In this document: positions 32-51,857 of the stretch, one piece after another
Numbering within the stretch: the first letter of the stretch is position 1
How the letters are laid out: the number at the start of each line of letters is the position of its first letter
Source: a virus
Lineage: Duplodnaviria; Caudoviricetes
Length of the DNA: 64,000 nt
IMG/VR virus record: IMGVR_UViG_3300007177_000042
Direction: 5' to 3' (one strand)
Notes under the pieces: model-generated
What the model was told of the DNA's origin: nothing
Database searches by the model: none
What the model saw: the letters and a program-made list of their open reading frames with translations, nothing else
Program-made: the position numbers and the translations under genes

Positions 32-676
32 TTGTCTGTGTTAGATTTTATAGCATACAATCGAATCAATACGTTTGTGAATAAATTGGTAACTGTTTCT
101 GAAACGGTTACTGATGCAAACTATATTGATAATTCTCCTAACGGCATTTTCACCGGACCTAAAGGTACAATTCTTCAAAAACGAGGAAATGTACTGTCTT
201 ATAAGTACCCAACAGACGTAAACTATACTGTTTTGAATTATGCTAGTAATAGTATAGGTAATTTGTTAAACAAATACGCTGTAATTCTTAATAGAGGTGT
301 AAATAAAAACGTTACATGGATCAAACAAGATTCTGAAAACGGAACAAAATGGAAAAACCAAGGAACTTCCAACACAGATTGTCAAATTTGTGAAGTTATT
401 GTTCCGACATCTCCATGTTTGACGCCGGTAATCACTTATTTTGGTCCTCCAGCACCAACAAATCCTACTCCAATTCCACCTACACCGGGATGTACTAATA
501 TAAATTGTTTGTATGTGGACTATCTTACAGCAAATAACTTGGTTGTAATTAGTGAAAAATGTGAACCGGGCCCCGGAACGCCTGGCACATTTGGTGAAAT
601 CGTTATTTGTGAAAATTATATCTACGTCTACGACGGTGTGAAGTGGAAACGTACTGAACTTTCAGTTTATTATTAA
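32..676 (+). CDS. Putative virion structural (tail/fibre-type) protein with Pro/Thr-rich linker
   Basis: C-terminal GEIVICENYIYVYDGVKWKRTEL resembles a short terminal motif common in phage fibre/structural proteins; PPAPTNPTPIPPTPG linker; TTG start; preceded by ATATTTATACC. Confidence 0.45.
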   Translation: MSVLDFIAYNRINTFVNKLVTVSETVTDANYIDNSPNGIFTGPKGTILQKRGNVLSYKYPTDVNYTVLNYASNSIGNLLNKYAVILNRGVNKNVTWIKQDSENGTKWKNQGTSNTDCQICEVIVPTSPCLTPVITYFGPPAPTNPTPIPPTPGCTNINCLYVDYLTANNLVVISEKCEPGPGTPGTFGEIVICENYIYVYDGVKWKRTELSVYY

Positions 677-11093: not shown

Positions 11094-11839
11094 AAAATTG
11101 AGTTTCTTTCTTTTGTTATAAGCACCGAATAACTATTAGATTTGTAATATACTTGATTTGATATATTTCCAAACGAATCTATTTTTTGAAGTACGTTTTC
11201 AATATAGTCCGTTGTTACATATAATTGTTCTAATGACTCGGGAACAAACGATAACTGGTTCAGAAGATCATTTCTAACCAATATTGCATTACCTGTATAG
11301 CAAACCATTTTATACCCTTTTGTTTGTGCTAATTTTGATACGGATAAAATAGAACATCCACCTGAAGATTTGAATTCTTGATCCACAGTATAGTTACTAT
11401 TTGTTTCTATTAGAACAATTTTTGGACGAAATTTGTTCATTGATTCAAATATCAAACAGTCGCAGGAGTCTACATCTATCGACATCAAACAAAATTCGTC
11501 ATCCGTCAAGTTAAATTTCGATTTTGTGAGAATGTTATCTATCGAATTGTTGTGATTTATGTCTGGTTCAATAAATGCGTTGATACATTCTATGTTTTTA
11601 TTTTTTGATGATAGATCGTTTAAATCCACACATCGAGATTTGTTTCCTTCGATCAATATCGCATTAAATCTCTGATCTTTCCATAAGTTAAATACGTTAC
11701 TCAAATATATGCCGTCCCATGCTCCAAATTCAACAACGACTCCATTAGAAATGTGTAATTCTTTAAACAACTGTTCTATAATACCGTCTTCTCCATTCTG
11801 AGAAAAAACGTTTTTTGCATATTTAATGTATCCATTCAT
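11084..11839 (-). CDS. FkbM-like SAM methyltransferase
   Basis: FSQNGEDGII, VVEFGAWDG..LSN, LMSIDVD. Confidence 0.8.
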   Translation of the reverse strand: MNGYIKYAKNVFSQNGEDGIIEQLFKELHISNGVVVEFGAWDGIYLSNVFNLWKDQRFNAILIEGNKSRCVDLNDLSSKNKNIECINAFIEPDINHNNSIDNILTKSKFNLTDDEFCLMSIDVDSCDCLIFESMNKFRPKIVLIETNSNYTVDQEFKSSGGCSILSVSKLAQTKGYKMVCYTGNAILVRNDLLNQLSFVPESLEQLYVTTDYIENVLQKIDSFGNISNQVYYKSNSYSVLITKERNSILCK

Positions 11840-11842
11840 AGT

Positions 11843-12550
11843 TTATATTTTGATGTATTCCACAGACGGAACGACAAAAAATTTTGTTTTCATTTGATAA
11901 TCATACCAACTTTCGTTAGTATTTGGTTTGATATGTGACGACATTATACAGATTTGTTTGAAATTTTGGTTAATATGTCGAATGGACGATGCCAACATAT
12001 GAGGTCCTGAATTTAAAGAAACAAAAGTATGACAACAGTTGATCAAGTCAACATATGTAGTAAGATCCGGTACCTCAATGTATTCAAATCCAAATGTTAA
12101 TCCGGAAGAATTTTTGTTTACAATCAATTTGACATTTGTATATGTTGACTTTATGTATTTTACAACACGGTCTATATCATATGATACGGTAATAGATCCC
12201 AAATCAATTAACACATCAATGTTTGATATATCGTTTTTTGGTTGATAGTATATCTTTGGAAAGCTGTTTTTTGGAACCAATCCATGAATATATTCCCAGT
12301 TTTTGATAAAATCATCGAATCGATTTTCGTATGATCTTCCGGGAATATCTCCCAATGTCCATTTGACATCTGATTGCCCTTTTATGTATGGATTTTTATC
12401 CCATACTATGGATCTTGTTGATGCGCTTCGAAACGGTGCGTCGTTGGTAAGAAACACCTCATGACCCTGTTCATGAAAACGTTCTGGTAAAGTGGAGAAT
12501 TGCAGCGTGTCACCTAGTCCACCAAAATAAGATTTGATTCCGTGTATCAT
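11843..12550 (-). CDS. GT9 (heptosyltransferase)-like glycosyltransferase
   Basis: GLGDTLQFSTLP and FVSLNSGPHMLA. Confidence 0.6.
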   Translation of the reverse strand: MIHGIKSYFGGLGDTLQFSTLPERFHEQGHEVFLTNDAPFRSASTRSIVWDKNPYIKGQSDVKWTLGDIPGRSYENRFDDFIKNWEYIHGLVPKNSFPKIYYQPKNDISNIDVLIDLGSITVSYDIDRVVKYIKSTYTNVKLIVNKNSSGLTFGFEYIEVPDLTTYVDLINCCHTFVSLNSGPHMLASSIRHINQNFKQICIMSSHIKPNTNESWYDYQMKTKFFVVPSVEYIKI

Positions 12551-22827: not shown

Positions 22828-25494
22828 ATGTATCAAAACATTTATATCGACAAAAAGAATGAAATCGTCCATTTGTGGGACGATCAAAAGGGTTATCTTC
22901 AATTTAAGATGCCTAAGTATGCATATCGTAAGAAAGCTGGCGGAAGATATCGTTCTGTATACGGTGATGAATTGGAAAAGGTTACCTTTTTTAATAGAAA
23001 CGATCCTAGTATTTTTGAAGGCGACGTACCAACCGAAACGAGAGTTCTGATTGATGCATACGAAGATAGTGACGAACCATCTAAAGGACACCGTATTTTG
23101 TTTTTCGATATCGAGGTTGACAGCGAAGGAGGATTTCCAAATATCGAAGAAGGAGATAAGGAAATCACCGCTATTGCCTTGTATGAAAGCGTAAGCAAAA
23201 AGTATATTGCCATGATTTTGGATAAGGAACAAAAGCTCCAAAATTATGAAACCGACGACACGACTGTATTGAGTTTTTCAGATGAAGAGTCGTTGATCAG
23301 TTACTTCATGAATAAGTGGGAAGAAATCCAACCAACCATTGTAACGGGATGGAATATTGATGGATTTGACGTTCCATATTTGTATAATCGTATCAAACGA
23401 GTCATGGGTGGAGCTTTTGCTAAAAGATTGAGTCCAATTCAGGAATGTTATTACAATACATTTTCTAAACGAATGGTTGTAGCTGGTATTTCCTGTCTTG
23501 ACTATCTTACGCTATATCAGAAGTTTAGTGGTAAGAACGAGCCTACTTATGCATTGGGTGCTATTGGTAAAAAAGTTGTTAATATCGAAAAGATTACGTA
23601 TCATGGTAGTTTGAATGATTTGTATAAAGCAGATCTTAAAAAGTACATTGATTATAACTTGAACGACGTTAAAATCGTTGTGGCAATCGACAAAAAGACA
23701 CAATTCATCGACTTGGCTCGTAGTATTTGCCATACTGGGCACGTTGGATACGAACAATTTGGAACATCTTCAAGATACCTTGAGGGTGCTATTCTGATGT
23801 ACTTGCGTCGTAAAGGACGTGTTGCACCTAATAAACCAATGGAGGGTCGAGACGAATATGAACAGAGATTGGAAGACGGAGAAGAAGGATTTGAGGGAGC
23901 TTATGTTAAAAGTCCTGTGCCTGGTCGTTACGAATGGGTTTATGATTTGGATCTTACATCAATGTATCCGAATATCATCATCTCACTTAACATATCTCCT
24001 GAAACTAAAGTAGGAGTAATCAATCGTATCGAATATGATGATTGTTATTTGGATGAACGTAAGGCTGAATTGATAGAGTCCTATGAAAATTTAAGTGACA
24101 GCACCAAATCTAAAACACCCGTAGAAGACTACATCAATCAACGATTGTATTTGTACAATGCTCGTATGTTCTCACAACGAAAAGTGAGTAAGTATTACAT
24201 TGGTAATATTGTATATACTCAAGATGAATTGGAGAATTTGTTGTTTCAGTCCAATATGAGCATTGCTAGCAATGGTGCTATCTATAAACTTCCAAAAGAA
24301 GTTGGTCAGGAAGGAACTGTTCCAAGCATTCTTATCAAGTGGTTCAATGAACGTAAAGAAATGCGTAAGTTGGCATCCAAGTATCATAATGAGGGAAACC
24401 ATGAGTTATATGAGTTTTATGATCTTCGTCAGAAGGTGCAAAAGATTTTGCTCAACTCTATTTACGGATGTCTTGGTCTTCCAGTCTTTCGATTTTATGA
24501 TAAGGACAATGCTGAGGCTGTAACACTAACAGGTGTGGACATTATTAAGACTGCTAATCGTTCAATCAACCAATATTATCGTGGTGTATTGAAAGACAAC
24601 ACCGTCAGAGATCATGTTATTTATGTAGACACCGATTCTTGTTTTGCAAGTGCGTTACCTATCATTCAACAAACCATGCCTGATGTAAATCTCAACGATG
24701 AAAAGCAAATGACCGATGCTATTTTGAAAGTCACTGCTGATGCACAAAAGTATGTAAATACAATGTTCGGCATAATGGCAAAGAAATTGTTCAATGTTGA
24801 ACGACATCGGTTTGACGCAAAACAGGAGGTTATTGCTAAGACGAGTTTTTGGCTTGCAAAAAAACGGTACTGTCAATTGATCATCAATAAAGGTGGATTG
24901 GTATGTGATGAACTAGAAGTCAAGGGCATTGACGTTGTTAGAACATCATTTCCACCACAATTTAGAAAGTTCATGGGAGAAATTCTCATGGATTTCTTAA
25001 AAAAGACAGACAGAGAAGTGGTTGATCAAAAAATCTTGGATTTCAAATCGTCAATTAAGAGTCTAAAAACATTTGATATTGCAAAAAATACAAGTGTTAA
25101 GTTTCGTAGTGGTGACAAGAAAAAGGATTACAATCCAAAACAACGACAACCATTTCAGATATTGAGCGGCACCCCAGCACAAGTAAAAGCTGCGTTGGTT
25201 TATAATGATCTTCTTGATAAGTTTGGACTGTCGAAAGTAGTACCGCCAATTTTCCACGGTCAGAAGATCAAGTGGGTATATGTAAGACAAAACGAGTTTG
25301 GTGTGGACTGTATTGCTATGAAAGCCGACGGTACCGATCCAAAACAAATTTTGGATTTTGTCGATAAATATATCGATAGAGACGCTATGTATGAACAAGA
25401 ATTGAAAAGCAAACTTCTTGAATTCTATAACGTATTGAAGTGGGAATATCCAAACGAAAATAGTGCGGTAGCGTCTGAGTTTTTTGATTTTTGA
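22828..25494 (+). CDS. Family B DNA polymerase (T4 gp43-like)
   Basis: Exonuclease FFDIEV, GWNIDGFDVPY, YNLNDV; polymerase DLTSMYPNII, KILLNSIYG, YVDTDS, KKRY. Confidence 0.97.
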   Translation: MYQNIYIDKKNEIVHLWDDQKGYLQFKMPKYAYRKKAGGRYRSVYGDELEKVTFFNRNDPSIFEGDVPTETRVLIDAYEDSDEPSKGHRILFFDIEVDSEGGFPNIEEGDKEITAIALYESVSKKYIAMILDKEQKLQNYETDDTTVLSFSDEESLISYFMNKWEEIQPTIVTGWNIDGFDVPYLYNRIKRVMGGAFAKRLSPIQECYYNTFSKRMVVAGISCLDYLTLYQKFSGKNEPTYALGAIGKKVVNIEKITYHGSLNDLYKADLKKYIDYNLNDVKIVVAIDKKTQFIDLARSICHTGHVGYEQFGTSSRYLEGAILMYLRRKGRVAPNKPMEGRDEYEQRLEDGEEGFEGAYVKSPVPGRYEWVYDLDLTSMYPNIIISLNISPETKVGVINRIEYDDCYLDERKAELIESYENLSDSTKSKTPVEDYINQRLYLYNARMFSQRKVSKYYIGNIVYTQDELENLLFQSNMSIASNGAIYKLPKEVGQEGTVPSILIKWFNERKEMRKLASKYHNEGNHELYEFYDLRQKVQKILLNSIYGCLGLPVFRFYDKDNAEAVTLTGVDIIKTANRSINQYYRGVLKDNTVRDHVIYVDTDSCFASALPIIQQTMPDVNLNDEKQMTDAILKVTADAQKYVNTMFGIMAKKLFNVERHRFDAKQEVIAKTSFWLAKKRYCQLIINKGGLVCDELEVKGIDVVRTSFPPQFRKFMGEILMDFLKKTDREVVDQKILDFKSSIKSLKTFDIAKNTSVKFRSGDKKKDYNPKQRQPFQILSGTPAQVKAALVYNDLLDKFGLSKVVPPIFHGQKIKWVYVRQNEFGVDCIAMKADGTDPKQILDFVDKYIDRDAMYEQELKSKLLEFYNVLKWEYPNENSAVASEFFDF

Positions 25495-30996: not shown

Positions 30997-31368
30997 ATGG
31001 TAAAAATAAGTGTAGACGAAGCATATGCTTTCGATATCCTGAGTATTTATGCTGTCAAAATGATCAACTGTACTGACCCTCTGAGACACAAATCAAGCTC
31101 TATCGCATACAATTGTTTGTTCAATGAATTAGAGCAAACTTTTGGTTATGAAAAAATGAGGGATATCATGAACTCTAAAGAATATAGATCTTTGTTTAGA
31201 GCAAACGAAGATACATTTCATTTGGTAGACAAAATACGTTCTAGTAATGAAGTATCTGTTGGAAAAGATATTGATAATGCTAATATGGAGAGATTTTTTT
31301 GTAAACGTCGATTGCAAGAAAAGTTTTTTGAAGGAAAATTGTTAGAAACAAAGACACAACATGAATAA
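30997..31368 (+). CDS. Helical protein resembling DUF6165-type proteins of glycan loci
   Basis: ISVDEAYAFDILSI...ANEDTFHLVDKIR...NMERFFCK. Confidence 0.4.
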   Translation: MVKISVDEAYAFDILSIYAVKMINCTDPLRHKSSSIAYNCLFNELEQTFGYEKMRDIMNSKEYRSLFRANEDTFHLVDKIRSSNEVSVGKDIDNANMERFFCKRRLQEKFFEGKLLETKTQHE

Positions 31369-31564
31369 GAAACAGATACTAAAAGAAATTTGGGACAATT
31401 GGGCTCACAAACAATGGTTTAAGTTTGCCAATTACGAATCCGAACAATCTAATAAGATTGTCGTCGAAACACATTATTATCCGGCGTTGGAAGTAGCACA
31501 GTTTAGAATGTTTGTTGGAAAGTATCCGGATATAATTGTAGAGTTCAAAAACCCACGACAATAA
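31361..31564 (+). CDS. Hypothetical protein
   Basis: Overlap-coupled small ORF. Confidence 0.55.
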   Translation: MNKKQILKEIWDNWAHKQWFKFANYESEQSNKIVVETHYYPALEVAQFRMFVGKYPDIIVEFKNPRQ

Positions 31565-35344: not shown

Positions 35345-35877
35345 AACAATATTGTGAAAAAATAACAAAGGAAATGACGACGCAATTTGGAGAAACTTAT
35401 TGTCGTCGATCATTGACACAGCCCTTTTGTAAAGGTAACGGAATAGATGTAGGATCACAGGGATCACCAGTTAATCCGGATTCAATTCAGATTGAATATG
35501 ACCGAAACAGATTTGATGTTGATGTTCCCATTCAATGGGAAGGAGATGGAACAAAAAATCTGCCATTTAAAGATGGTGTGTTGGATTATGTGTACAGCAG
35601 TCATTTGCTTGAGGATTATGAGGATTGGGTTCCCATCTTAAATGAATGGAATAGGGTACTTAAAGTTGGAGGACACATTGTCATCATGATACCCGACAAA
35701 AATATATTTCGTGAAAAAGTAAAAAACGGACAGCCCGATAATCCAAACCATAAACACGAAGGATATCCCGGTGAATTGACCGAATATTATCATCGACATT
35801 TTCAAAACTTTTGTGTTATAAAAGATGAAATCACCGATGGATATAATATTTTGTTTGTAGCTCAAAAATTACTATGA
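35341..35877 (+). CDS. SAM methyltransferase (type 11)
   Basis: GIDVGS, LPFKDGVLDYVYSSHLLED, RVLKVGG. Confidence 0.85.
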   Translation: MKQYCEKITKEMTTQFGETYCRRSLTQPFCKGNGIDVGSQGSPVNPDSIQIEYDRNRFDVDVPIQWEGDGTKNLPFKDGVLDYVYSSHLLEDYEDWVPILNEWNRVLKVGGHIVIMIPDKNIFREKVKNGQPDNPNHKHEGYPGELTEYYHRHFQNFCVIKDEITDGYNILFVAQKLL

Positions 35878-37241
35878 AATTTGACAGCGAAATATACGAT
35901 AGTGAATTGTTCGAACTAAAAGGATTTCATCCACACGAAGTCGAATCCGATGCAAACGGAACCAAATTTTTTTGGACCGATACCGTTTTCAAAATATTAG
36001 TGATGCGATATTCTGGATGTATCTACATGGTGTTCAGAACTAGTTCTGATAAAAATCTAGTAATCATGGTCGAAGGCAAATGTGGAGTATCTAAACGTGA
36101 GTTTAAAATACATCCTTCTGGCGAATACATACTTAAAGTAAAAGCAGATTTGGGTGATATTATATCTGTAATTACAGAACCAAATTTCCCACCGCCTGTA
36201 AATGATCTTCGCAAACTCGGATTGTATACTACTAAAATATTTTGTTCAAGTCACGAACTTGGTCAGCAACATATTGAACTTTTTCAAAAAGACCATATCA
36301 GCGTCGAAGACAAAACGGTTATGTTTAACTTTGAAAAAGTTGTTGATGAACAAAACCGTATTGCAATTCCTTTTAATCAACAATCGCCAAATGTTGAGAT
36401 TCTTCCATTCACATATAGCAAAAAAAATCATGAATTCAATTCTGCTGTTTTTGATTTCAGACAAAATCGTTATATCATAACAAGAAATACAAAAGTTGTT
36501 TTTAACAACATATCGCATAATACTCTTAATTTGTATGAATTCGGAACATATAGAAAATTGGAACTAAACATTATCGATGAAGTTGATGACGAACAGTATG
36601 AAGATCCGAGAGTGTTTACTCACAATGATAAAATATATGTGAGTTGTGCAAATTACATTTATGGAAATTTAAGTAACATACATCAAAAAATACTTGTATT
36701 TGATAATACGTTCACCCATATTAACAACATTCACACCAAATATGGATTTAATGGAAAATCTATCAAACAAAACAGCGGGGTAGAAAAAAATTGGACGTAT
36801 TTTGTACATGATGACAGATTGATGTGCATATACAAAATGAACCCCCATGTGGTGCTTGAGTTGAATTGGAGTGGTGAGGTAGTAACAGAGTATATTACAC
36901 ATTTTGATCTTAAATCTCATTGGAAATATGGTGAGTGTCGAGGAGGAACTAATCCGATACTAAAAGATGGTTATTATCATGCGTTTTTTCACAGTAGTCT
37001 TCCGTGGGATAGGGGCCGTCGTCATTACTTTATGGGAAAGTATGTATTTGAAAGCAAACCACCATTTAGGATTGTCGAAATAACATCAGAACCAATACTT
37101 TGGGGTAACACTACCGATGAAAGAATACTACCAGATAAAAATCCATTAGTAGTTTTTCCATGTGGTGTGGTCATACAACAAGATAAGTTTTTGGTGAGTT
37201 TCGGAATTAATGACGAAAAAACAGGAATAGTAACATTATGA
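35874..37241 (+). CDS. GH130-like five-bladed beta-propeller glycosidase/phosphorylase with N-terminal beta module
   Basis: YEDPRV, EKNW, GGTNP, FFHS, PPFRI..EP, VVFPCG. Confidence 0.7.
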   Translation: MKFDSEIYDSELFELKGFHPHEVESDANGTKFFWTDTVFKILVMRYSGCIYMVFRTSSDKNLVIMVEGKCGVSKREFKIHPSGEYILKVKADLGDIISVITEPNFPPPVNDLRKLGLYTTKIFCSSHELGQQHIELFQKDHISVEDKTVMFNFEKVVDEQNRIAIPFNQQSPNVEILPFTYSKKNHEFNSAVFDFRQNRYIITRNTKVVFNNISHNTLNLYEFGTYRKLELNIIDEVDDEQYEDPRVFTHNDKIYVSCANYIYGNLSNIHQKILVFDNTFTHINNIHTKYGFNGKSIKQNSGVEKNWTYFVHDDRLMCIYKMNPHVVLELNWSGEVVTEYITHFDLKSHWKYGECRGGTNPILKDGYYHAFFHSSLPWDRGRRHYFMGKYVFESKPPFRIVEITSEPILWGNTTDERILPDKNPLVVFPCGVVIQQDKFLVSFGINDEKTGIVTL

Positions 37242-42637: not shown

Positions 42638-42648
42638 ATATTTATACC
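42638..42648 (+). promoter_or_regulatory. Putative late-promoter motif ATATTTATACC
   Basis: Ends 2 nt before the ATG at 42651, the head of the putative virion-cargo operon. Confidence 0.55.
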
Positions 42649-42650
42649 AC

Positions 42651-43211
42651 ATGACCTATAAAGACTTTTTCAAAGAAAATAACATGAGTCAGATACCTAT
42701 CGGTGGACAACCCACACTTTCAGGTCAATCTGGTACATACGCTTCGCCCGATGTAACCCAAAATCCCGGTTCATTTCCAGCCGATAGTTCCAAGGTAAAT
42801 ATTGTTCCACCAGTGGATCAAGACATTAAGTCGAAAATTGATCCTGAACAATACAAAAAGGACGTGGACACGATCAAAACGAAAGTCACACCCGATGATA
42901 TCATTCAGGGTATAGAATACGAACTCAAAAAACAAATTTACAAGAACAAGATGGTTGCAAAAGAAACGGTTGTTCAAAATTTGAAGAAGAATCCACGATT
43001 CTATCGAGACTTAGATATGTTGACTGGTGGCCCCGAGATGATGAAAGAAAATAACCAGAAAGAAGAAATTGCAAAGATTATCCAAAACATGGCCGTAGAA
43101 TCAAAAGGACGTGAACGTGTAGAACAAAAGTACGGCAATTTTGATGCTATCAAGAAGTTGATGGATGAAAAATGGGAAGAAAAGAAAAAGAGAAGGAACT
43201 ACAATGGATAA
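42651..43211 (+). CDS. Putative virion/head protein with DUF5661-like module
   Basis: VTPDDIIQGIEYE...AKETVVQNLKKNPRFYRDL parallels a module in the 43395 ORF. Confidence 0.55.
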   Translation: MTYKDFFKENNMSQIPIGGQPTLSGQSGTYASPDVTQNPGSFPADSSKVNIVPPVDQDIKSKIDPEQYKKDVDTIKTKVTPDDIIQGIEYELKKQIYKNKMVAKETVVQNLKKNPRFYRDLDMLTGGPEMMKENNQKEEIAKIIQNMAVESKGRERVEQKYGNFDAIKKLMDEKWEEKKKRRNYNG

Positions 43212-43398
43212 ACTTAAAGGCGATTGGTATGTAATAGGGGCTCAAGATAAAATTCAAGATCCATTGATTGGTCACCCAGCCATGAAAGGTCGTAGATGGC
43301 AAATTGACTATGCATATCCATCCAACGGATATGATAAAATGCAACAAGCTGCAAAAGAAGCGGAAAAGTATAAACAAAAAGGAAATAATAGACCATGA
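43204..43398 (+). CDS. Hypothetical protein
   Basis: Overlap-coupled at both ends. Confidence 0.5.
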   Translation: MDKLKGDWYVIGAQDKIQDPLIGHPAMKGRRWQIDYAYPSNGYDKMQQAAKEAEKYKQKGNNRP

Positions 43399-44033
43399 AT
43401 TACAAAGATTTTTACCCCGAAGTTGCACAAGGTCAACAACCAAAACTTGTTGGGGGTGTAGGTGATGCAACAGCACCAGCCGATGTAGATCCAGCCGAGT
43501 TAGCTATGGGTTCTACAGTTGAGATGGAACACACTACCGATCCTGATATCGCCACGGAAATTGCATTGGACCATTTGACAGATGATCCACAATATTACAC
43601 TAAACTCAAAAAAGCGGGATTGGCCAAAGAACTAGACGCGTGCGGCAATCCTTCTGGATTGGGCGATCCAGACCACCCGATCAATGATAAACCGAGATTG
43701 GGTACTGTTGTGACTGCTTCTCCGGGAAATAATATTGTAAAGGTTGACAAAACTCCGGATGGATCTATAGAGGGAAGACGTGATGTACCTCCTATTGTAA
43801 AAAAAGACTTTACTGTTGATATCGATATTAAAGATCCAAACGAACTGGAAACCATATTTAAAGAGGCATTGTTATCAGAAAAGAATGTACCAACTAACAA
43901 ATCATTATGGTCCAGAGCAAAAGCTGAAGCTCGTAAAAGATTCAAAGTATATCCAAGCGCATATGCAAATGGTTGGGCTGTAAAGTGGTATAAAAAACAC
44001 GGCGGTGGATGGAGAAAGACGAGTAAAAAATGA
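43395..44033 (+). CDS. Modular putative head protein (DUF5661-like plus basic C-terminal module)
   Basis: ELAMGSTVEMEHTTD..IATEIALDHL..DPQYYTKL; C-terminal LWSRAKAEARKRFKVYPSAYANGWAVKWYKKHGGGW. Confidence 0.65.
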   Translation: MNYKDFYPEVAQGQQPKLVGGVGDATAPADVDPAELAMGSTVEMEHTTDPDIATEIALDHLTDDPQYYTKLKKAGLAKELDACGNPSGLGDPDHPINDKPRLGTVVTASPGNNIVKVDKTPDGSIEGRRDVPPIVKKDFTVDIDIKDPNELETIFKEALLSEKNVPTNKSLWSRAKAEARKRFKVYPSAYANGWAVKWYKKHGGGWRKTSKK

Positions 44034-45064
44034 TCAAATTAACCGACATTGTTAAAAGTATATTGAAAGAAGGTGGTAAACTGTTTGGCGATAAAGCACA
44101 ACGTGTTACAACCGACGAGATGTATAGTGTATTTGATGAGATCAAAAAGAAGTTGGCAAATAAGTTTGATCGATTCAACATATCCACAAAACTAGCCTCC
44201 AAGGTGGATCATGGTGATATTGACATTGTTGTATTGCCGAAGACAGGACAGACTACCAGAAACATAGTATTGTCAACTCTATCATCAAATATCGTAAAGG
44301 ACGAAAACAATCAACCAATCGTCAGTACAAACGATAATATTTTGTCCGTATTGTATCTTCCACAAAAGTTGGACAAACAGGTTCATGTTGATTTTATTAC
44401 AGCTGGATCGGAAGATGATTTTGAGACAAAAGAACATTATTTATCATACAATGATTTCTCGGGTATGGTCGGTGTTATGTCCAGAAAACTAGGTTTCAAA
44501 TATGGAAGCGAAGGATTTTTCAAGATATTTACCGATAACAAAGGACAAAATCACGACATTTTAATCACAAAAAACCTTCGTGATGGATTGAAAATTCTAG
44601 GATTTCGTAAAGTTGACACCAATTTTTCAAATATTCGTAGCGAAGACGACATTGTTGAATTTATAAAAACATCACCATTATTTGATGTTCGTCAATATAC
44701 TACTGATCTAAACAGTGGAGATTTGAAAAAAATGAGATCAGCACGTAAAAGCGCTCAATACATTCGTGACGAATTGATTAAAAGTAATCAACATCGATCC
44801 ATTGAAGATAATGATCACTTTTTCAAACAGTTGTTTCCTCAAAAATATGAATGGGTAGAATCTGAAAAACAGAGACTCAATGTACCCGTGATCAAAACAT
44901 CAAAGTATACCGGTGAATGGATCATAAAGACATTCAATTTGAAGCCAGGCAAGGTTATAGGACAAGTTAAAGACTTTTTGAACAATCGGTATGGTGATGA
45001 TTTAGACAACGTGCCTGAAGATCAAGTGATTGCTACTGTTAAACAATATTTATCTAAGATATGA
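44030..45064 (+). CDS. Pol-beta superfamily nucleotidyltransferase-like protein with MIKL..I..ILKE leader
   Basis: HGDIDIV, VHVDFI (third Asp), C-terminal TGEWII..FNLKPGKVIG resembling CCA/poly(A) enzyme tails. Confidence 0.6.
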   Translation: MIKLTDIVKSILKEGGKLFGDKAQRVTTDEMYSVFDEIKKKLANKFDRFNISTKLASKVDHGDIDIVVLPKTGQTTRNIVLSTLSSNIVKDENNQPIVSTNDNILSVLYLPQKLDKQVHVDFITAGSEDDFETKEHYLSYNDFSGMVGVMSRKLGFKYGSEGFFKIFTDNKGQNHDILITKNLRDGLKILGFRKVDTNFSNIRSEDDIVEFIKTSPLFDVRQYTTDLNSGDLKKMRSARKSAQYIRDELIKSNQHRSIEDNDHFFKQLFPQKYEWVESEKQRLNVPVIKTSKYTGEWIIKTFNLKPGKVIGQVKDFLNNRYGDDLDNVPEDQVIATVKQYLSKI

Positions 45065-46983
45065 ACGAACTTACAAAAGATCAGTGGAAACGTAGTATGT
45101 CAACCGGATTTGGAGACGGTGATCATCCTATAAATCATGATAATCCCCATCACGATAGATTGGTAGTACAATTGGAAAATGCGGAAATGTCAATGAGTGA
45201 TGTAACAAAGATTATCAAGTATAGTCAAAAGTTACAGTCTATGTTTTCTACCACCGACAATCTTGAAGATTGGGTGAAAGCAAAACTTAATCATGCTTGT
45301 GATTATGTCGCTACCGTTCGTGATTATCTGAAGTTTTATAATTCCGAAAAAGAACAGAATACAGAACAATCAGCCATCAACGAAAAGTGGTCTAGTAGTT
45401 ACAAAAAGAGTATCAATTGCAACAACCCAAAAGGATTTAGTCAAAAAGCTCATTGTAGAGCTAGACAATTGAGAAAATCAGGAGTTCAAACCAAAAGCAA
45501 ACCTGTCAAGGAATATTACAAAGAGGCCGTATTGGAATTGATACGTGAACAAGACAGTAGTATGGCAATGGGAGCTCTTAAACAACTCAATAGTGATGCA
45601 AAAGAACTTGCACATATGTTGAAGCCTGAAATGAATTTGGAAGATTGGGTAAAAGCTAAGTTGAATTTAGCAGGCGAATATCTTGATGATGTGTATCATC
45701 ACTTGGATCATTTCGGACCAGAAGGTCGTAAACTCGACGAATCTTCTGATATTGAAGAGGGTTGGAAAGATATTGCTGCTGCCGGTCTTTTGGGTCTTGC
45801 AACATTGAAAGGATCCGCTGCACAATCAGCGAAACCAAGTGCTACTAAACCATCCAAAGTCACGGTATCGAAAGTCGTCACTCCTATGGTATCAAAAGTT
45901 GCTGCTAAACCTGATACAAAAGTGACCAAACTTGAATTGGACCAATCGTTTATTGACTATATCAAAACAGTAGAAAATGCGGGCAAAACTGGATATAATA
46001 AACAAAAGAAATTGTGGTTTCCTCATAAAAGTTTTGAAGGAGGCAGTGATACCATTGGGTACGGACACAAAATTCAAAAAGGAGAAGATTTTAGTAAGGG
46101 TATTACAGATTCTCAAGCCGAAGATTTATTGAAAAAAGATTTGGATAAAGCAAAAGAACAAGTTTATAAAGAACTTGGAAACCGCCAATTGACTAAAAAA
46201 CAGTTGGAAATGTTTGTTGATTTTGTATTCAATATGGGAACTCTCAAAAAGTTTCCAAAGTTTACTATTGCAGCACTTAAAAATGATACACAAGGAATGA
46301 AATCTCAATACAAGAGATTCGCTGGAGGTAAAGAGTTAAAAGGGCGTAACACAGCATTTCTTGGAAGATTTTTGTCTGAGAATTTAAACGAATTGGACTA
46401 TGAGGGCGGAGTTGGAATACACGAATTGATGATGTTTTATGCTAAAGCTACACCAGATCAATGTGACCAATTGGAGGGGTGTATGAAAAATCAAAATATT
46501 CAGTGTGTAAAAAGTCTAATAACCAAAGTAACAGGTATGACTATGGATAAGATTCAAGAGGGTTTTTATGCCGGATCCAAGAATTACTGGATCAGTCCAT
46601 CTGGAAAACTGATTGATATTGAGAAAGAAGGATTTCCACTGAATGATCATGCGACATGGGCAGTTGTAAACGTTTTATCTGATGCTGATCCCGAATATGC
46701 TAAAGCAAAAGGTAAAGATGTTAATTGGGTTTATCAAAACTACTCCGGACAAACATCGGTATATACCACAATGATTGAATATGGATATATTCGTTGTGTT
46801 GTGATGACAACACGACGTGAAGTTGCATTGGATTTTGCGGATCATACCGATGAATGGAGAAAATATCTTAGTAAATCACAAGCATCTGCTGTAATCAAAT
46901 ATGCTATTGATAAAGAATACAAAGTAATCGTGGATAGTTCAAATAAAGTTTTGTATGATCCACCAAAACCAGATGATGTATGA
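45061..46983 (+). CDS. Modular putative virion protein with two internal repeats and a GH24-like lysozyme domain
   Basis: Repeat NLEDWVKAKLN twice; KTVEN...EGGSDTIGYGHK, GITDSQAEDLLKKDL, FVDFVFNMG. Confidence 0.75.
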   Translation: MNELTKDQWKRSMSTGFGDGDHPINHDNPHHDRLVVQLENAEMSMSDVTKIIKYSQKLQSMFSTTDNLEDWVKAKLNHACDYVATVRDYLKFYNSEKEQNTEQSAINEKWSSSYKKSINCNNPKGFSQKAHCRARQLRKSGVQTKSKPVKEYYKEAVLELIREQDSSMAMGALKQLNSDAKELAHMLKPEMNLEDWVKAKLNLAGEYLDDVYHHLDHFGPEGRKLDESSDIEEGWKDIAAAGLLGLATLKGSAAQSAKPSATKPSKVTVSKVVTPMVSKVAAKPDTKVTKLELDQSFIDYIKTVENAGKTGYNKQKKLWFPHKSFEGGSDTIGYGHKIQKGEDFSKGITDSQAEDLLKKDLDKAKEQVYKELGNRQLTKKQLEMFVDFVFNMGTLKKFPKFTIAALKNDTQGMKSQYKRFAGGKELKGRNTAFLGRFLSENLNELDYEGGVGIHELMMFYAKATPDQCDQLEGCMKNQNIQCVKSLITKVTGMTMDKIQEGFYAGSKNYWISPSGKLIDIEKEGFPLNDHATWAVVNVLSDADPEYAKAKGKDVNWVYQNYSGQTSVYTTMIEYGYIRCVVMTTRREVALDFADHTDEWRKYLSKSQASAVIKYAIDKEYKVIVDSSNKVLYDPPKPDDV

Positions 46984-47306
46984 ATTTTAACACACAAAAC
47001 TTTGGAGCAATGATGAATATGATGGCTGGGGCGCGTGAAATATCAGCCACGCAAAACGATCCTATACATCAAATGTTGGTTCGTAGAAAACAAGGTGGAG
47101 AAGATACACAAATTCCTCCACAACAATCATTTCCACAGGAAGACATTGATGCTTTAGAAAAATTCTGTCAAAAACATGGAATTTTGGGATTTAATTTTGG
47201 AAGAATGCATCCTAGAGCAGCATTGAACATGTTGAAAAACAAAATGGGAATGCCGTCACATACCGAAGTAACTGATTCGCATTGCAAAACTTTGTTGAAA
47301 GGATAA
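46980..47306 (+). CDS. Hypothetical protein
   Basis: ATGA-coupled ORF in the operon. Confidence 0.65.
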   Translation: MNFNTQNFGAMMNMMAGAREISATQNDPIHQMLVRRKQGGEDTQIPPQQSFPQEDIDALEKFCQKHGILGFNFGRMHPRAALNMLKNKMGMPSHTEVTDSHCKTLLKG

Positions 47307-47307
47307 T

Positions 47308-47856
47308 ATGGAAGAACAATTGTTGATAAAAACACTTCAACTAGATGAAGATTTGAAACAATGGTTTAGTAAAACTCACCCAAAGGGCAATTGGAAAGCT
47401 TTTAATACATCCGGAAAGTCAATTGGTGCGTGCGGATCTCGTAAAAAAGGACAACCATATGCTGCTTGTCTTGGTAATAAATATGCTGCTCGTTTGAGAG
47501 CAAAAGGTGGTAGAAAAGCTATTGCTAACTGGGTTCGTAGGAAATTAGCGGCTCAGAGAAAATCGGGACATGGTAAAAAAGGTGGAGGATCGACCGGTCG
47601 TAAGCCAGTAAGAGTCAGTTATAAAGAAACTCTTCAAGAAGTATTTTCTGTAAAAAATAGAGATGAGTTAAAAAAAGATCTCACTCAATTTTTACAACAA
47701 CAATTCGAAAAAGGAGATTTGATTTCTACACATCAAGGTATCAGTACGACAGAATATAAACCAGACGATTGGTATGAAAATATTGCTGACAACATTATCA
47801 ATCGAATGATTCAATATTTTCAAGTTACAAAAGGTCAAACAGAAAGGAATTTATGA
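47308..47856 (+). CDS. Modular basic putative head protein
   Basis: LDE-DLKQWFSK..PKGNW...CG....PYAAC module; second module after LQE. Confidence 0.55.
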   Translation: MEEQLLIKTLQLDEDLKQWFSKTHPKGNWKAFNTSGKSIGACGSRKKGQPYAACLGNKYAARLRAKGGRKAIANWVRRKLAAQRKSGHGKKGGGSTGRKPVRVSYKETLQEVFSVKNRDELKKDLTQFLQQQFEKGDLISTHQGISTTEYKPDDWYENIADNIINRMIQYFQVTKGQTERNL

Positions 47857-48794
47857 AAAAACACATAGTTATACCTATATTGGTCATAGCATTATTATTG
47901 TCTGGGTGTGCATCATGGTGGAAAAAGACAAATCCAAACACCGACAAAGTTAATACAGCACAACAACAGGTTCAAGAAGCTAAAGACGCTTTGTCACTCA
48001 ACACGAAGGAAAAACTTAATCAGGTTAGATCTACAGCCGCTGGCGTAGATTATGCGTTGTCTAAAGTGACCAATCCACCCGTAACGGTGTCTGTAGCAAA
48101 AGAACTCAATAACAGAACTACAAGCATAGTGGGCACCCCCAATGTTGACGAATTGGCCCGTATGAAACAGATTGTAGACGATCTCACTTCACAACTTGAA
48201 GAAGAACAAAAGCGTGGTAAAAAGATGTTATCTGAAAAAGATAAAGAGATTTTGGGTGTCCAACAAGAAACAGAAAGATTGAAAAAAGAACTGAGTGAGA
48301 AAAACGACGAACTAAAAAAAACAGCAGAAACAGTAGCGAAAACTGCCGATGAATATAAAACCACAGTAGATAGAGTCAATAGTTTCTTTGGTCTTGGTGG
48401 TGTTATTTATGGACTCAAAAAGTTTGTTGCAAGTTGTTTGTTGTTCATATTGATTTTTGGTATCATATTTTTGGTTCTTCGTATATTGTCAAATACCAAT
48501 CCTATTGCCAAAGCCGCATTTATGTTTTTTGATATGATCGGAAGCGTCATACTAAATCTAATACGCGGACTCATGCCCAACTCTATTAGTATGTCTAAGT
48601 TGGTAGACGAAACAAAACACAATTCATATAAAAACGCATTGTACAAGATTATTGATTCGGTTCAGGAAATCAAAACAGACAAGTCGGAACAAAATCCAAC
48701 ATTAAATTCGTTGCTTGATAAACTTTCTAAAAACATGAATGACTCTGACAAACAGATCGTTGATGATATCAAACGAGAACTACGTTGGAAGTAA
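47853..48794 (+). CDS. Lipoprotein with coiled coil and C-terminal TM segment(s); spanin-like candidate
   Basis: Lipobox LLSG-C19; heptad-rich helical body; TM FVASCLLFILIFGIIFLVLRIL. Confidence 0.6.
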   Translation: MKKHIVIPILVIALLLSGCASWWKKTNPNTDKVNTAQQQVQEAKDALSLNTKEKLNQVRSTAAGVDYALSKVTNPPVTVSVAKELNNRTTSIVGTPNVDELARMKQIVDDLTSQLEEEQKRGKKMLSEKDKEILGVQQETERLKKELSEKNDELKKTAETVAKTADEYKTTVDRVNSFFGLGGVIYGLKKFVASCLLFILIFGIIFLVLRILSNTNPIAKAAFMFFDMIGSVILNLIRGLMPNSISMSKLVDETKHNSYKNALYKIIDSVQEIKTDKSEQNPTLNSLLDKLSKNMNDSDKQIVDDIKRELRWK

Positions 48795-51846: not shown

Positions 51847-51857
51847 ATATTTATACC
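51847..51857 (+). promoter_or_regulatory. Putative late-promoter motif ATATTTATACC
   Basis: Ends 2 nt before the ATG at 51860. Confidence 0.55.

Follow-up and report, generated by a model that had tools for sequence, protein, structure and literature searches.

The DNA analyzed here, a window of 64,000 nucleotides, comprises bases 41754-105753 of a 171,680-bp IMG/VR virus record (IMGVR_UViG_3300007177_000042; G000 below) and carries, at positions 42651-47856, seven plus-strand genes that we name A, A2, B, C, D, E and F. We conclude that these genes probably constitute a T4-type internal-protein system extended to polyprotein form, in a freshwater jumbo myovirus. An earlier note on this DNA had proposed that the operon encodes polyprotein-like internal head proteins, which are cut after Glu at Leu/Ile-x-Glu sites ((L/I)xE) and release small basic peptides and enzymes for injection into the host. 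This proposal gained comparative support from the leaders of the proteins, the sequence logo of the module joints, the Peptidase S77 protease and capsid propeptide of relatives, the upstream motif TATTTATA and the kinds of modules that are present.

(L/I)xE motifs at the joints of shuffled modules

All of the (L/I)xE sites that had been quoted in B, C, D and F were located (Table 1), as were the near-identical leaders MTYKDFFKE and MNYKDFYPE at the starts of A (42651) and B (43395). An exhaustive, profile-free homology search with D yielded 3,611 relatives, most of which matched one or a few modules. The ends of the homology segments lay within 4 amino acids (aa) of the eight sites of D in 155 out of 361 cases, compared with 40 +/- 34 for random sites (p = 0.005), and seven of the eight sites were situated at boundary clusters, which cover 32% of the protein (binomial p = 0.002). 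When 45 tripeptide patterns of similar frequency were ranked by their tie to the D boundaries, [LI]xE came first. An automated breakpoint test over all operon families gave an enrichment of only about 2-fold (64 versus 32.8), with heavily replicated counts.

The operon is retained, with its modules shuffled, in 23 related loci. We constructed a logo from 235 unique 12-mers around seven joints, with homologues clustered at 50% identity, and found that the last motif position (P1) was Glu in 63% (1.76 bits) and the first (P3) Leu or Ile in 64% (1.24 bits), that P2 was variable and polar, and that the flanks were weakly conserved; since the columns were picked where the query has the motif, these values measure conservation and not discovery. 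The P3 and P1 codons vary among relatives (ATC, ATA, CTT, TTA and TTG; GAA and GAG), and a conserved DNA linker was thus rejected as the origin of the joints.

Modules inserted in relatives were bracketed by the motif, for example in L023 (LTE...LLE/KWS) and in L020, where a module of the type found at the C-terminal end of the window's D is inserted between LDE/GYD and LEE/GWKD. Relatives in which D ends after the lysozyme terminate in FLAE plus an eight-residue tail, and relatives of B have LEE, LEE and LDE sites in a row ahead of the basic module. Two B-C fusion proteins retain the C leader internally as ...IKLAEIAKQVLIE before GGKLFG, and one C fusion carries the module of D residues 445-500 behind SLNE/SLNE/LDYEG. 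Gene fusions of this kind keep the leader of the downstream gene as an internal (L/I)xE joint.

GIY-YIG and NUMOD3-type homing-endonuclease-like genes lie within the corresponding operon of a relative, G004 (138577-139572 and 141717-142493; L131 and L132), and could help to move modules between phages. The B homologue at L010:5715-7709 (as well as those of L011, L015 and L021) has an insertion of ~230 residues inside the conserved YPSAYANGW motif of its DUF5872 module. The insertion begins with Cys, ends in ...ITGN before Ser and matches Pfam Intein_splicing below the cut-off (22 bits); this putative head-cargo gene thus probably contains an intein.

Leaders resembling T4 capsid-targeting sequences

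In T4, IPIII needs no more than its first ten residues to be targeted to the capsid, and these are removed by gp21, which cuts after Glu, as do the diverged gp21 homologues of phiKZ and SPN3US (PMC9026906, PMC5694885). Replacement of the P1 Glu of the T4 targeting sequence by Asp blocks the cut (PMC9026906). We retrieved the T4 sequences (IPII and IPIII, MKTYQEFIAE; IPI, MKTFKEF...ITE; gp24, MAKINE/LLRE) and compared them with the leaders found here. Those of A and B, together with MRAKEFISE/KWS of a distant relative, resemble the IP type. Many stand-alone homologues of the D lysozyme begin MIKLKxLIxE or MKNFKTFYLNE; the former and the C leader MIKLTDIVKSILKE resemble the gp24 type, and the F leader reads ...LQLDE. 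A leader of ~10-20 residues ending in (L/I)xE is exactly what C and F possess (E14 in both). Leader lengths of 6, 10, 14 and 17 aa occur in the C family, and with few exceptions [LI]xE closes the leader and GGKLFG follows at once; E14 of C is conserved in at least 90%. The AlphaFold2 (AF2) model of C had a predicted local distance difference test score (pLDDT) of 89.6, with residues 1-16 below 50, and in this model the leader is detached from the fold. A position matrix derived from the leaders of relatives, which is blind to the A/B type, was passed by 18 of 260 N-termini at a threshold that 2% of interior windows pass, a modest enrichment.

MIKL-type leaders were also observed in four more proteins of this phage (MKISKADLISLIHE, MNRENIIKSILLE, MKLDDLRKLVKE and MNKKQILKE; Table 1). 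Two of the four are preceded by TATTTATA, and two are coiled-coil proteins, acidic and rich in (L/I)xE sites, and in this reminiscent of scaffold or core proteins.

The distant C homologue of Stenotrophomonas phage Moby starts without a leader. Its gene (L153, 84489-85664) is located amid a tRNA gene cluster, near phosphoesterase and polynucleotide kinase genes, a context that hints at a nucleic-acid end-repair role for the Pol X-like enzyme.

Prohead protease and head genes in relatives

The search for a gp21 homologue that the note had recommended was negative for the 171.7-kb fragment and for G001, which also bears the operon, but positive for other relatives: Peptidase_S77 exceeded the Pfam cut-off in the complete genomes G002-G004 (~300 kb), in the 78%-complete G006 and in the fragments G013-G016. 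The complete relative G004 (~297 kb) and this phage have 62 open reading frames (ORFs) in common, arranged in syntenic blocks and 42% identical on average; G004 encodes a T4-like portal, S77 protease (275753-276379) and major capsid protein (MCP). The propeptide of its MCP holds four [LI]xE sites, and the small proteins around its protease gene and the lysozyme beside its MCP gene begin with (L/I)xE leaders, one of which is MNLTDIAKKILKE. Upstream of its SNF2 gene, an operon syntenic with that of the window encodes three paralogues that all begin MKKSELKALIKE.

In G000 and G001, Pfam searches with S77, Gp23, Portal_T4 and Terminase_6C found nothing except a weak capsid-like fragment. The ORF at the start of the contig, used as a query for head genes of this phage, yielded nothing, contig walking via identical proteins added ~28 kb beyond the far end without head genes, and the operon was not found on the fragments that have the S77 protease. 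An identical C protein is recorded on a contig of 289,645 bp, which was not in the list of protease homologues. As no head genes were recognizable on either the 171.7-kb fragment, whose CheckV completeness is 49%, or G001, the head module must lie on the missing part. In the compared region of G004 (260186-297258), the terminase-portal-protease-capsid block is located between a homologue of a 692-aa glycosyltransferase and the tail sheath gene. The same two neighbours are only ~1 kb apart in this phage (G000 620-9432), which implies that the head block has been relocated elsewhere.

We also observed, in the early-gene region, a 104-aa ORF (L029:1486-1800; G000 117232-117546, minus strand) with the C-terminal stretch ...PLVNKVFPEISAKEIISVQPM, which resembles the start of the mature T4-type capsid protein (Pfam Gp23, 19 bits). 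The ORF would be a remnant of a capsid gene or else encode a small mimic of the capsid protein.

Points against processing and the alternative of uncut mosaic proteins

Several observations weigh against the view that head cargo is processed here at (L/I)xE joints. The searches of the 171.7-kb fragment and of G001 detected neither an S77 protease nor a T4-type portal, terminase or MCP gene, and the protease has therefore to be deduced from relatives that are ~42% identical on average. The operon is flanked by glycan genes and an SNF2 helicase gene rather than lying within a head module. The last three residues of the leaders are FKE in A and YPE in B, with aromatic P3 and, in B, Pro at P2, and the first D joint reads QLE, all of which are non-canonical; more distant B homologues have no leader; and the D sites 108, 455 and 500 are inside predicted helices. 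The motif ends at residues 5-20 in 54 of 260 ORFs, so the bare N-terminal pattern is unspecific and was rejected as a discriminator. The count of (L/I)xE in A-F is ordinary (13 seen versus 12.3 expected from composition), by which simple enrichment in the operon was likewise rejected; it is the placement of the motif in D that exceeds chance. Among the breakpoints listed for families A and B, we saw no association with (L/I)xE. Moreover, all known cleavages in SPN3US, apart from self-cleavage of the protease, remove N-terminal propeptides only, and multi-product processing is therefore without that precedent.

The motif statistics bear on a different explanation, namely that the products are mosaic multi-domain ('polyvalent'-type) proteins that work uncut, whether packaged or not, and that (L/I)xE is a common helix-end or acidic-linker feature exchanged with the modules. 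(L/I)xE is common throughout the genome (1.06 per 100 aa) without being enriched in number in the operon, several sites are in predicted helices, the listed A and B breakpoints are unassociated, and polyvalent proteins of the N4 type are packaged unprocessed (PMC5512222). We nevertheless regard this explanation as rather unlikely, because conservation is specific to P3 and P1 while P2, flanks and codons vary, because [LI]xE outranks the other 44 patterns at boundaries, because the C leader varies from 6 to 17 aa and yet almost always ends in the motif right before GGKLFG, and because the MCP propeptide of the protease-bearing G004 is filled with the same motif.

Gene content and expression of the operon

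The record has a coding density of ~95% and encodes a tail sheath, a tape measure protein, a UvsX-like recombinase, a DnaB-like helicase and a family B DNA polymerase (best cultured match, Microcystis phage Mel-JY01, 42%), from which we conclude that it derives from a large myovirus. Against cultured phages, nucleotide searches gave no match and protein searches gave only module-level or ~22%-identical matches. The stop and start codons of genes A-F and of a downstream lipoprotein gene overlap or are spaced 1 nt apart, and these genes look like one late operon. No plus-strand terminator-like sites were found within the operon stretch, where sigma-70-like promoter matches were not above chance.

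Table 1. Features of the operon and associated elements. Positions are those of the window unless G000 is given; numbers for sites and modules are residues.
Feature	Position	Strand	Description
ATATTTATACC (core TATTTATA)	42638..42648	+	Candidate late-type promoter, 2 nt before first ATG
Copies of TATTTATA	42638-42648, 51847-51857, 5-15; G000 9654, 11022, 11707, 13229, 23736		
Gene A, 186 aa	42651..43211	+	Leader MTYKDFFKE, then DUF5661-like helical module (~82-123)
Gene A2, 64 aa	43204..43398	+	Conserved small basic protein, isoelectric point (pI) 9.4; start overlaps A stop
Gene B, 212 aa	43395..44033	+	Leader MNYKDFYPE, acidic DUF5661 part, LLSE at E162, basic DUF5872 module
B site	162		LLSE/KNV
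Gene C, 344 aa	44030..45064	+	Leader MIKLTDIVKSILKE, then Pol X-like (Pol beta/lambda palm-thumb) nucleotidyltransferase
C site	14		ILKE/GGK
Gene D, 640 aa	45061..46983	+	Module string including GH24 lysozyme
D modules	40-108; 109-163; 164-227		Helical; basic Cys (pI 10.1); helical repeat
D module	234-440		Gly/Ala-rich hydrophobic segment, linker and GH24 lysozyme; predicted fragment pI 9.8
D modules	445-500; 501-640		Helical Cys; alpha/beta
D sites	108; 163; 227; 233		INE/KWS; IRE/QDS; LDE/SS; IEE/GWK
D sites	440, 444; 500		LSE/NLNE/LDY; IQE/GFY
Gene E, 108 aa	46980..47306	+	Conserved, zero (L/I)xE; C-terminal motif recurs in syntenic G004 operon
Gene F, 182 aa	47308..47856	+	Leader ending LDE (E14); LQE at E111; acidic C-terminal module
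F sites	14; 111		LDE/DLK; LQE/VFS
Lipoprotein gene	47853-48794	+	Lipobox LLSGC, long coiled coil, hydrophobic helices near C-terminus
Proteins with MIKL-type leaders	G000 11719-12078, 23759-25384, 35752-36423; 31361-31564		

Pfam and PHROGs assigned few parts of these proteins, namely in B (DUF5661 and, below threshold, DUF5872), C (a 'DNA polymerase' PHROG) and D (phage lysozyme). The core module of A matches the C-terminus of a G004 protein described below, at 52% identity (E = 1e-11). B consists of a DUF5661 part (residues 10-162; pI 4.5; 38 bits) and a DUF5872 module (~163-212; pI ~10.9; 26.8 bits). The solved folds closest to the C model in Foldseek were the palm and thumb of DNA polymerases beta and lambda (E = 5e-7). 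In D, Pfam Phage_lysozyme matched at 328-428; its AF2 model comprises confident helical modules and a muramidase, with low-confidence stretches at 228-283, 441-448 and 504-575, and Foldseek with the whole model returned muramidases only, the other modules matching no known fold. Residues 15-111 of F form a very basic Cys module (pI 11.2). By computed pI, cuts at the predicted sites would give acidic pieces alternating with basic ones. The 'small basic peptides' of the note correspond to three predicted fragments with pI values of 10-11 (B ~163-212, D 109-163 and F 15-111).

The GH24 muramidase of D is preceded by a Gly/Ala-rich, weakly hydrophobic segment, the next gene of the operon has a lipobox and hydrophobic helices, and some stand-alone lysozyme homologues have signal peptides. 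These features could suggest a lysis or envelope cassette, in which D would be a membrane-tethered endolysin resembling those of the signal-arrest-release (SAR) type, the lipoprotein a spanin-like partner, and the other genes passengers. However, the hydrophobic segment is at ~236-256 of 640 residues, behind 230 aa of soluble modules, whereas SAR endolysins have an N-terminal one; it becomes N-terminal only after the predicted cut at E233, and ~200 further residues follow the enzyme. In addition, the homologous lysozyme beside the MCP gene of G004 has a cleavable-type leader and no membrane segment, and the lipoprotein gene accompanies the operon in the closest relatives only. We therefore consider a lysis cassette very improbable.

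As the note had stated, ATATTTATACC precedes the operon, and its core TATTTATA occurs in 18 copies in the record, of which seven are situated 12-35 nt upstream of a same-strand start, all on the plus strand; the genes that follow these seven copies are several of the tail region, that for the tape measure protein and those of the operon considered here. The motif of T4, TATAAATA, had this placement in 0 of 18 cases. On this sequence evidence, TATTTATA is a candidate late promoter of the phage group that is distinct from TATAAATA of T4, and its distribution suggests that the operon may be co-expressed with structural genes. Because the motif is so near the ATG, the transcripts may be nearly leaderless.

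Putative cargo modules

We found that the homologues of A in L006 and L007 (609 aa; L006:4286-6115 and L007:4298-6127) retain the MTYKDFFKE leader and contain, after LLLE/EEDLNE, an ArdC-N insertion of ~420 aa (41 bits) with an HExxH motif; by sequence, it looks like an anti-restriction module in frame with a cargo protein. In the syntenic operon of G004, a 307-aa protein (140773-141696; L132:773-1696) matches Acb1, which counteracts the cyclic-oligonucleotide-based antiphage signaling system (anti-CBASS; 38 bits, above the cut-off), as well as 2H phosphoesterases, and ends in the helical module of gene A. The T4 gene adjoining ipI is 57B, which we take to be acb1. When relatives and operon are considered together, at least two conflict-type domains per polypeptide are found: in D, the lysozyme is accompanied by at least five other modules, ArdC-N is part of the A homologue of L006, and G004 fuses the Acb1-like 2H domain to the A-type module. 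ArdC-N, 2H, lysozyme and pol-beta nucleotidyltransferase domains are all listed among those of polyvalent proteins, which are thought to enter the host with the DNA (PMC5512222).

A cultured Vibrio phage has DUF5661 inside a DUF2213 protein that is encoded between the genes for the terminase and a DUF2184 protein. DUF2184 proteins are usually major capsid proteins, and this context hints at a role in the head interior. Scans of the window proteins against Pfam and PHROG gave no match to internal virion protein families, a class that is not defined by homology of the mature parts (PMC9026906).

The same scans found no peptidase family match in the window proteins, HExxH being seen only in the ArdC-type insertion of L006 and L007. 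A different protease might cut the precursors, or cutting might wait until they have been injected, or they might be ordinary polyproteins that are processed in the cytoplasm and are not targeted to the capsid. Such schemes could draw on the lack of a head protease gene on this fragment and on the HExxH of the insertion, which is like that of the processing metallopeptidases of polyvalent proteins; we give them little credence, since no peptidase domain occurs in the window proteins, (L/I)xE is the same as the T4 gp21 logo and relatives possess that enzyme.

Proposed mechanism and significance

The motifs, their placement and conservation, the shuffling and fusions, and the protease of relatives were observed directly; from them we infer targeting, cleavage, retention of multiple products and ejection as follows. 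The short N-terminal leaders would play the part of the T4 capsid-targeting sequence, carrying the precursors into the prohead core. A prohead protease of the gp21 family (Peptidase S77) would then cut after Glu in (L/I)xE, at the leader and at each module joint, so that one gene would give several products. These would include basic Cys-containing peptides located alongside the DNA, acidic helical pro-segments, a lysozyme bearing a weakly hydrophobic anchor and the Pol X-like nucleotidyltransferase, and would be ejected together with the genome. New precursors appear to arise by fusion of leader-bearing genes, the old leader being left as an internal cleavable joint. A bolder version, which we offer tentatively and regard as somewhat less likely than not, is that the head-protease site serves as a standard connector: leader-bearing cargo that has become fused would still be delivered separately, acidic pro-segments would mask basic DNA-binding peptides until they are cleaved, and counter-defence enzymes (ArdC-type, Acb1-type, Pol X-like nucleotidyltransferase and anchored lysozyme) would be swapped as cassettes between lake jumbo phages.

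If the proposed processing is true, capsid targeting and prohead-protease processing, known from a handful of T4 proteins, would be a general modular delivery route in abundant uncultured jumbo phages, and several pre-made proteins, likely counter-defence enzymes among them, would reach the host from a single gene as the DNA enters. The leader and the (L/I)xE joints would then provide a simple sequence rule to predict injected phage proteins from metagenomes, and the T4 protein-packaging system that already exists could serve to try out the natural leaders and linkers. Each of the elements (capsid-targeting sequences, gp21 processing, polyvalent proteins) has been described before. In the searchable literature, we found no description of multi-module precursors with a head-protease motif at every joint, or of their shuffling among uncultured jumbo phages.

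Comparison with known systems

The Dar system of phage P1 (DarA, DdrB and partners) likewise consists of anti-restriction proteins that are loaded in the head, some after proteolysis (PMC5512222), but its proteins and head type are different, and no (L/I)xE joint logic is described in that source. Polyvalent proteins (Iyer et al. 2017, PMC5512222) resemble the operon products in having several conflict-related domains per polypeptide, thought to enter the host with the DNA, and share the domain types ArdC-N, lysozyme, 2H and pol-beta nucleotidyltransferase; however, a zincin-like metallopeptidase of their own is proposed to cut them, whereas the window has no such domain and its joints carry a head-protease motif.

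The inner-body and ejection proteins of phiKZ, 201phi2-1 and SPN3US, which are processed by gp175/gp245, also belong to jumbo myoviruses, in which a diverged gp21-type protease acts on many head proteins, cutting after Glu and often more than once per protein. The enzymes differ in using AxE (SPN3US) and SxE (phiKZ) instead of the Leu/Ile-x-Glu seen here (PMC5694885), the cleavages of SPN3US substrates strip long N-terminal propeptides only, and we saw no homology between these proteins and those of the operon.

T4 IPI, IPII, IPIII and Alt likewise have short N-terminal leaders that end in hydrophobic-x-Glu and are close to MKTYQEFIAE. The T4 internal proteins share with the present ones a leader common to paralogues (a hallmark there, and seen here in the G004 paralogues), genes outside the head cluster and basic products, and the gp21 that processes them has a homologue in the relatives studied here. 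The mature parts show no sequence homology. Whereas each T4 gene gives one product plus a 10-residue propeptide, several products per gene are predicted here, from up to six or more modules, and the operon proteins further differ from those of T4 in having the motif at every joint and modules that are shuffled among relatives.

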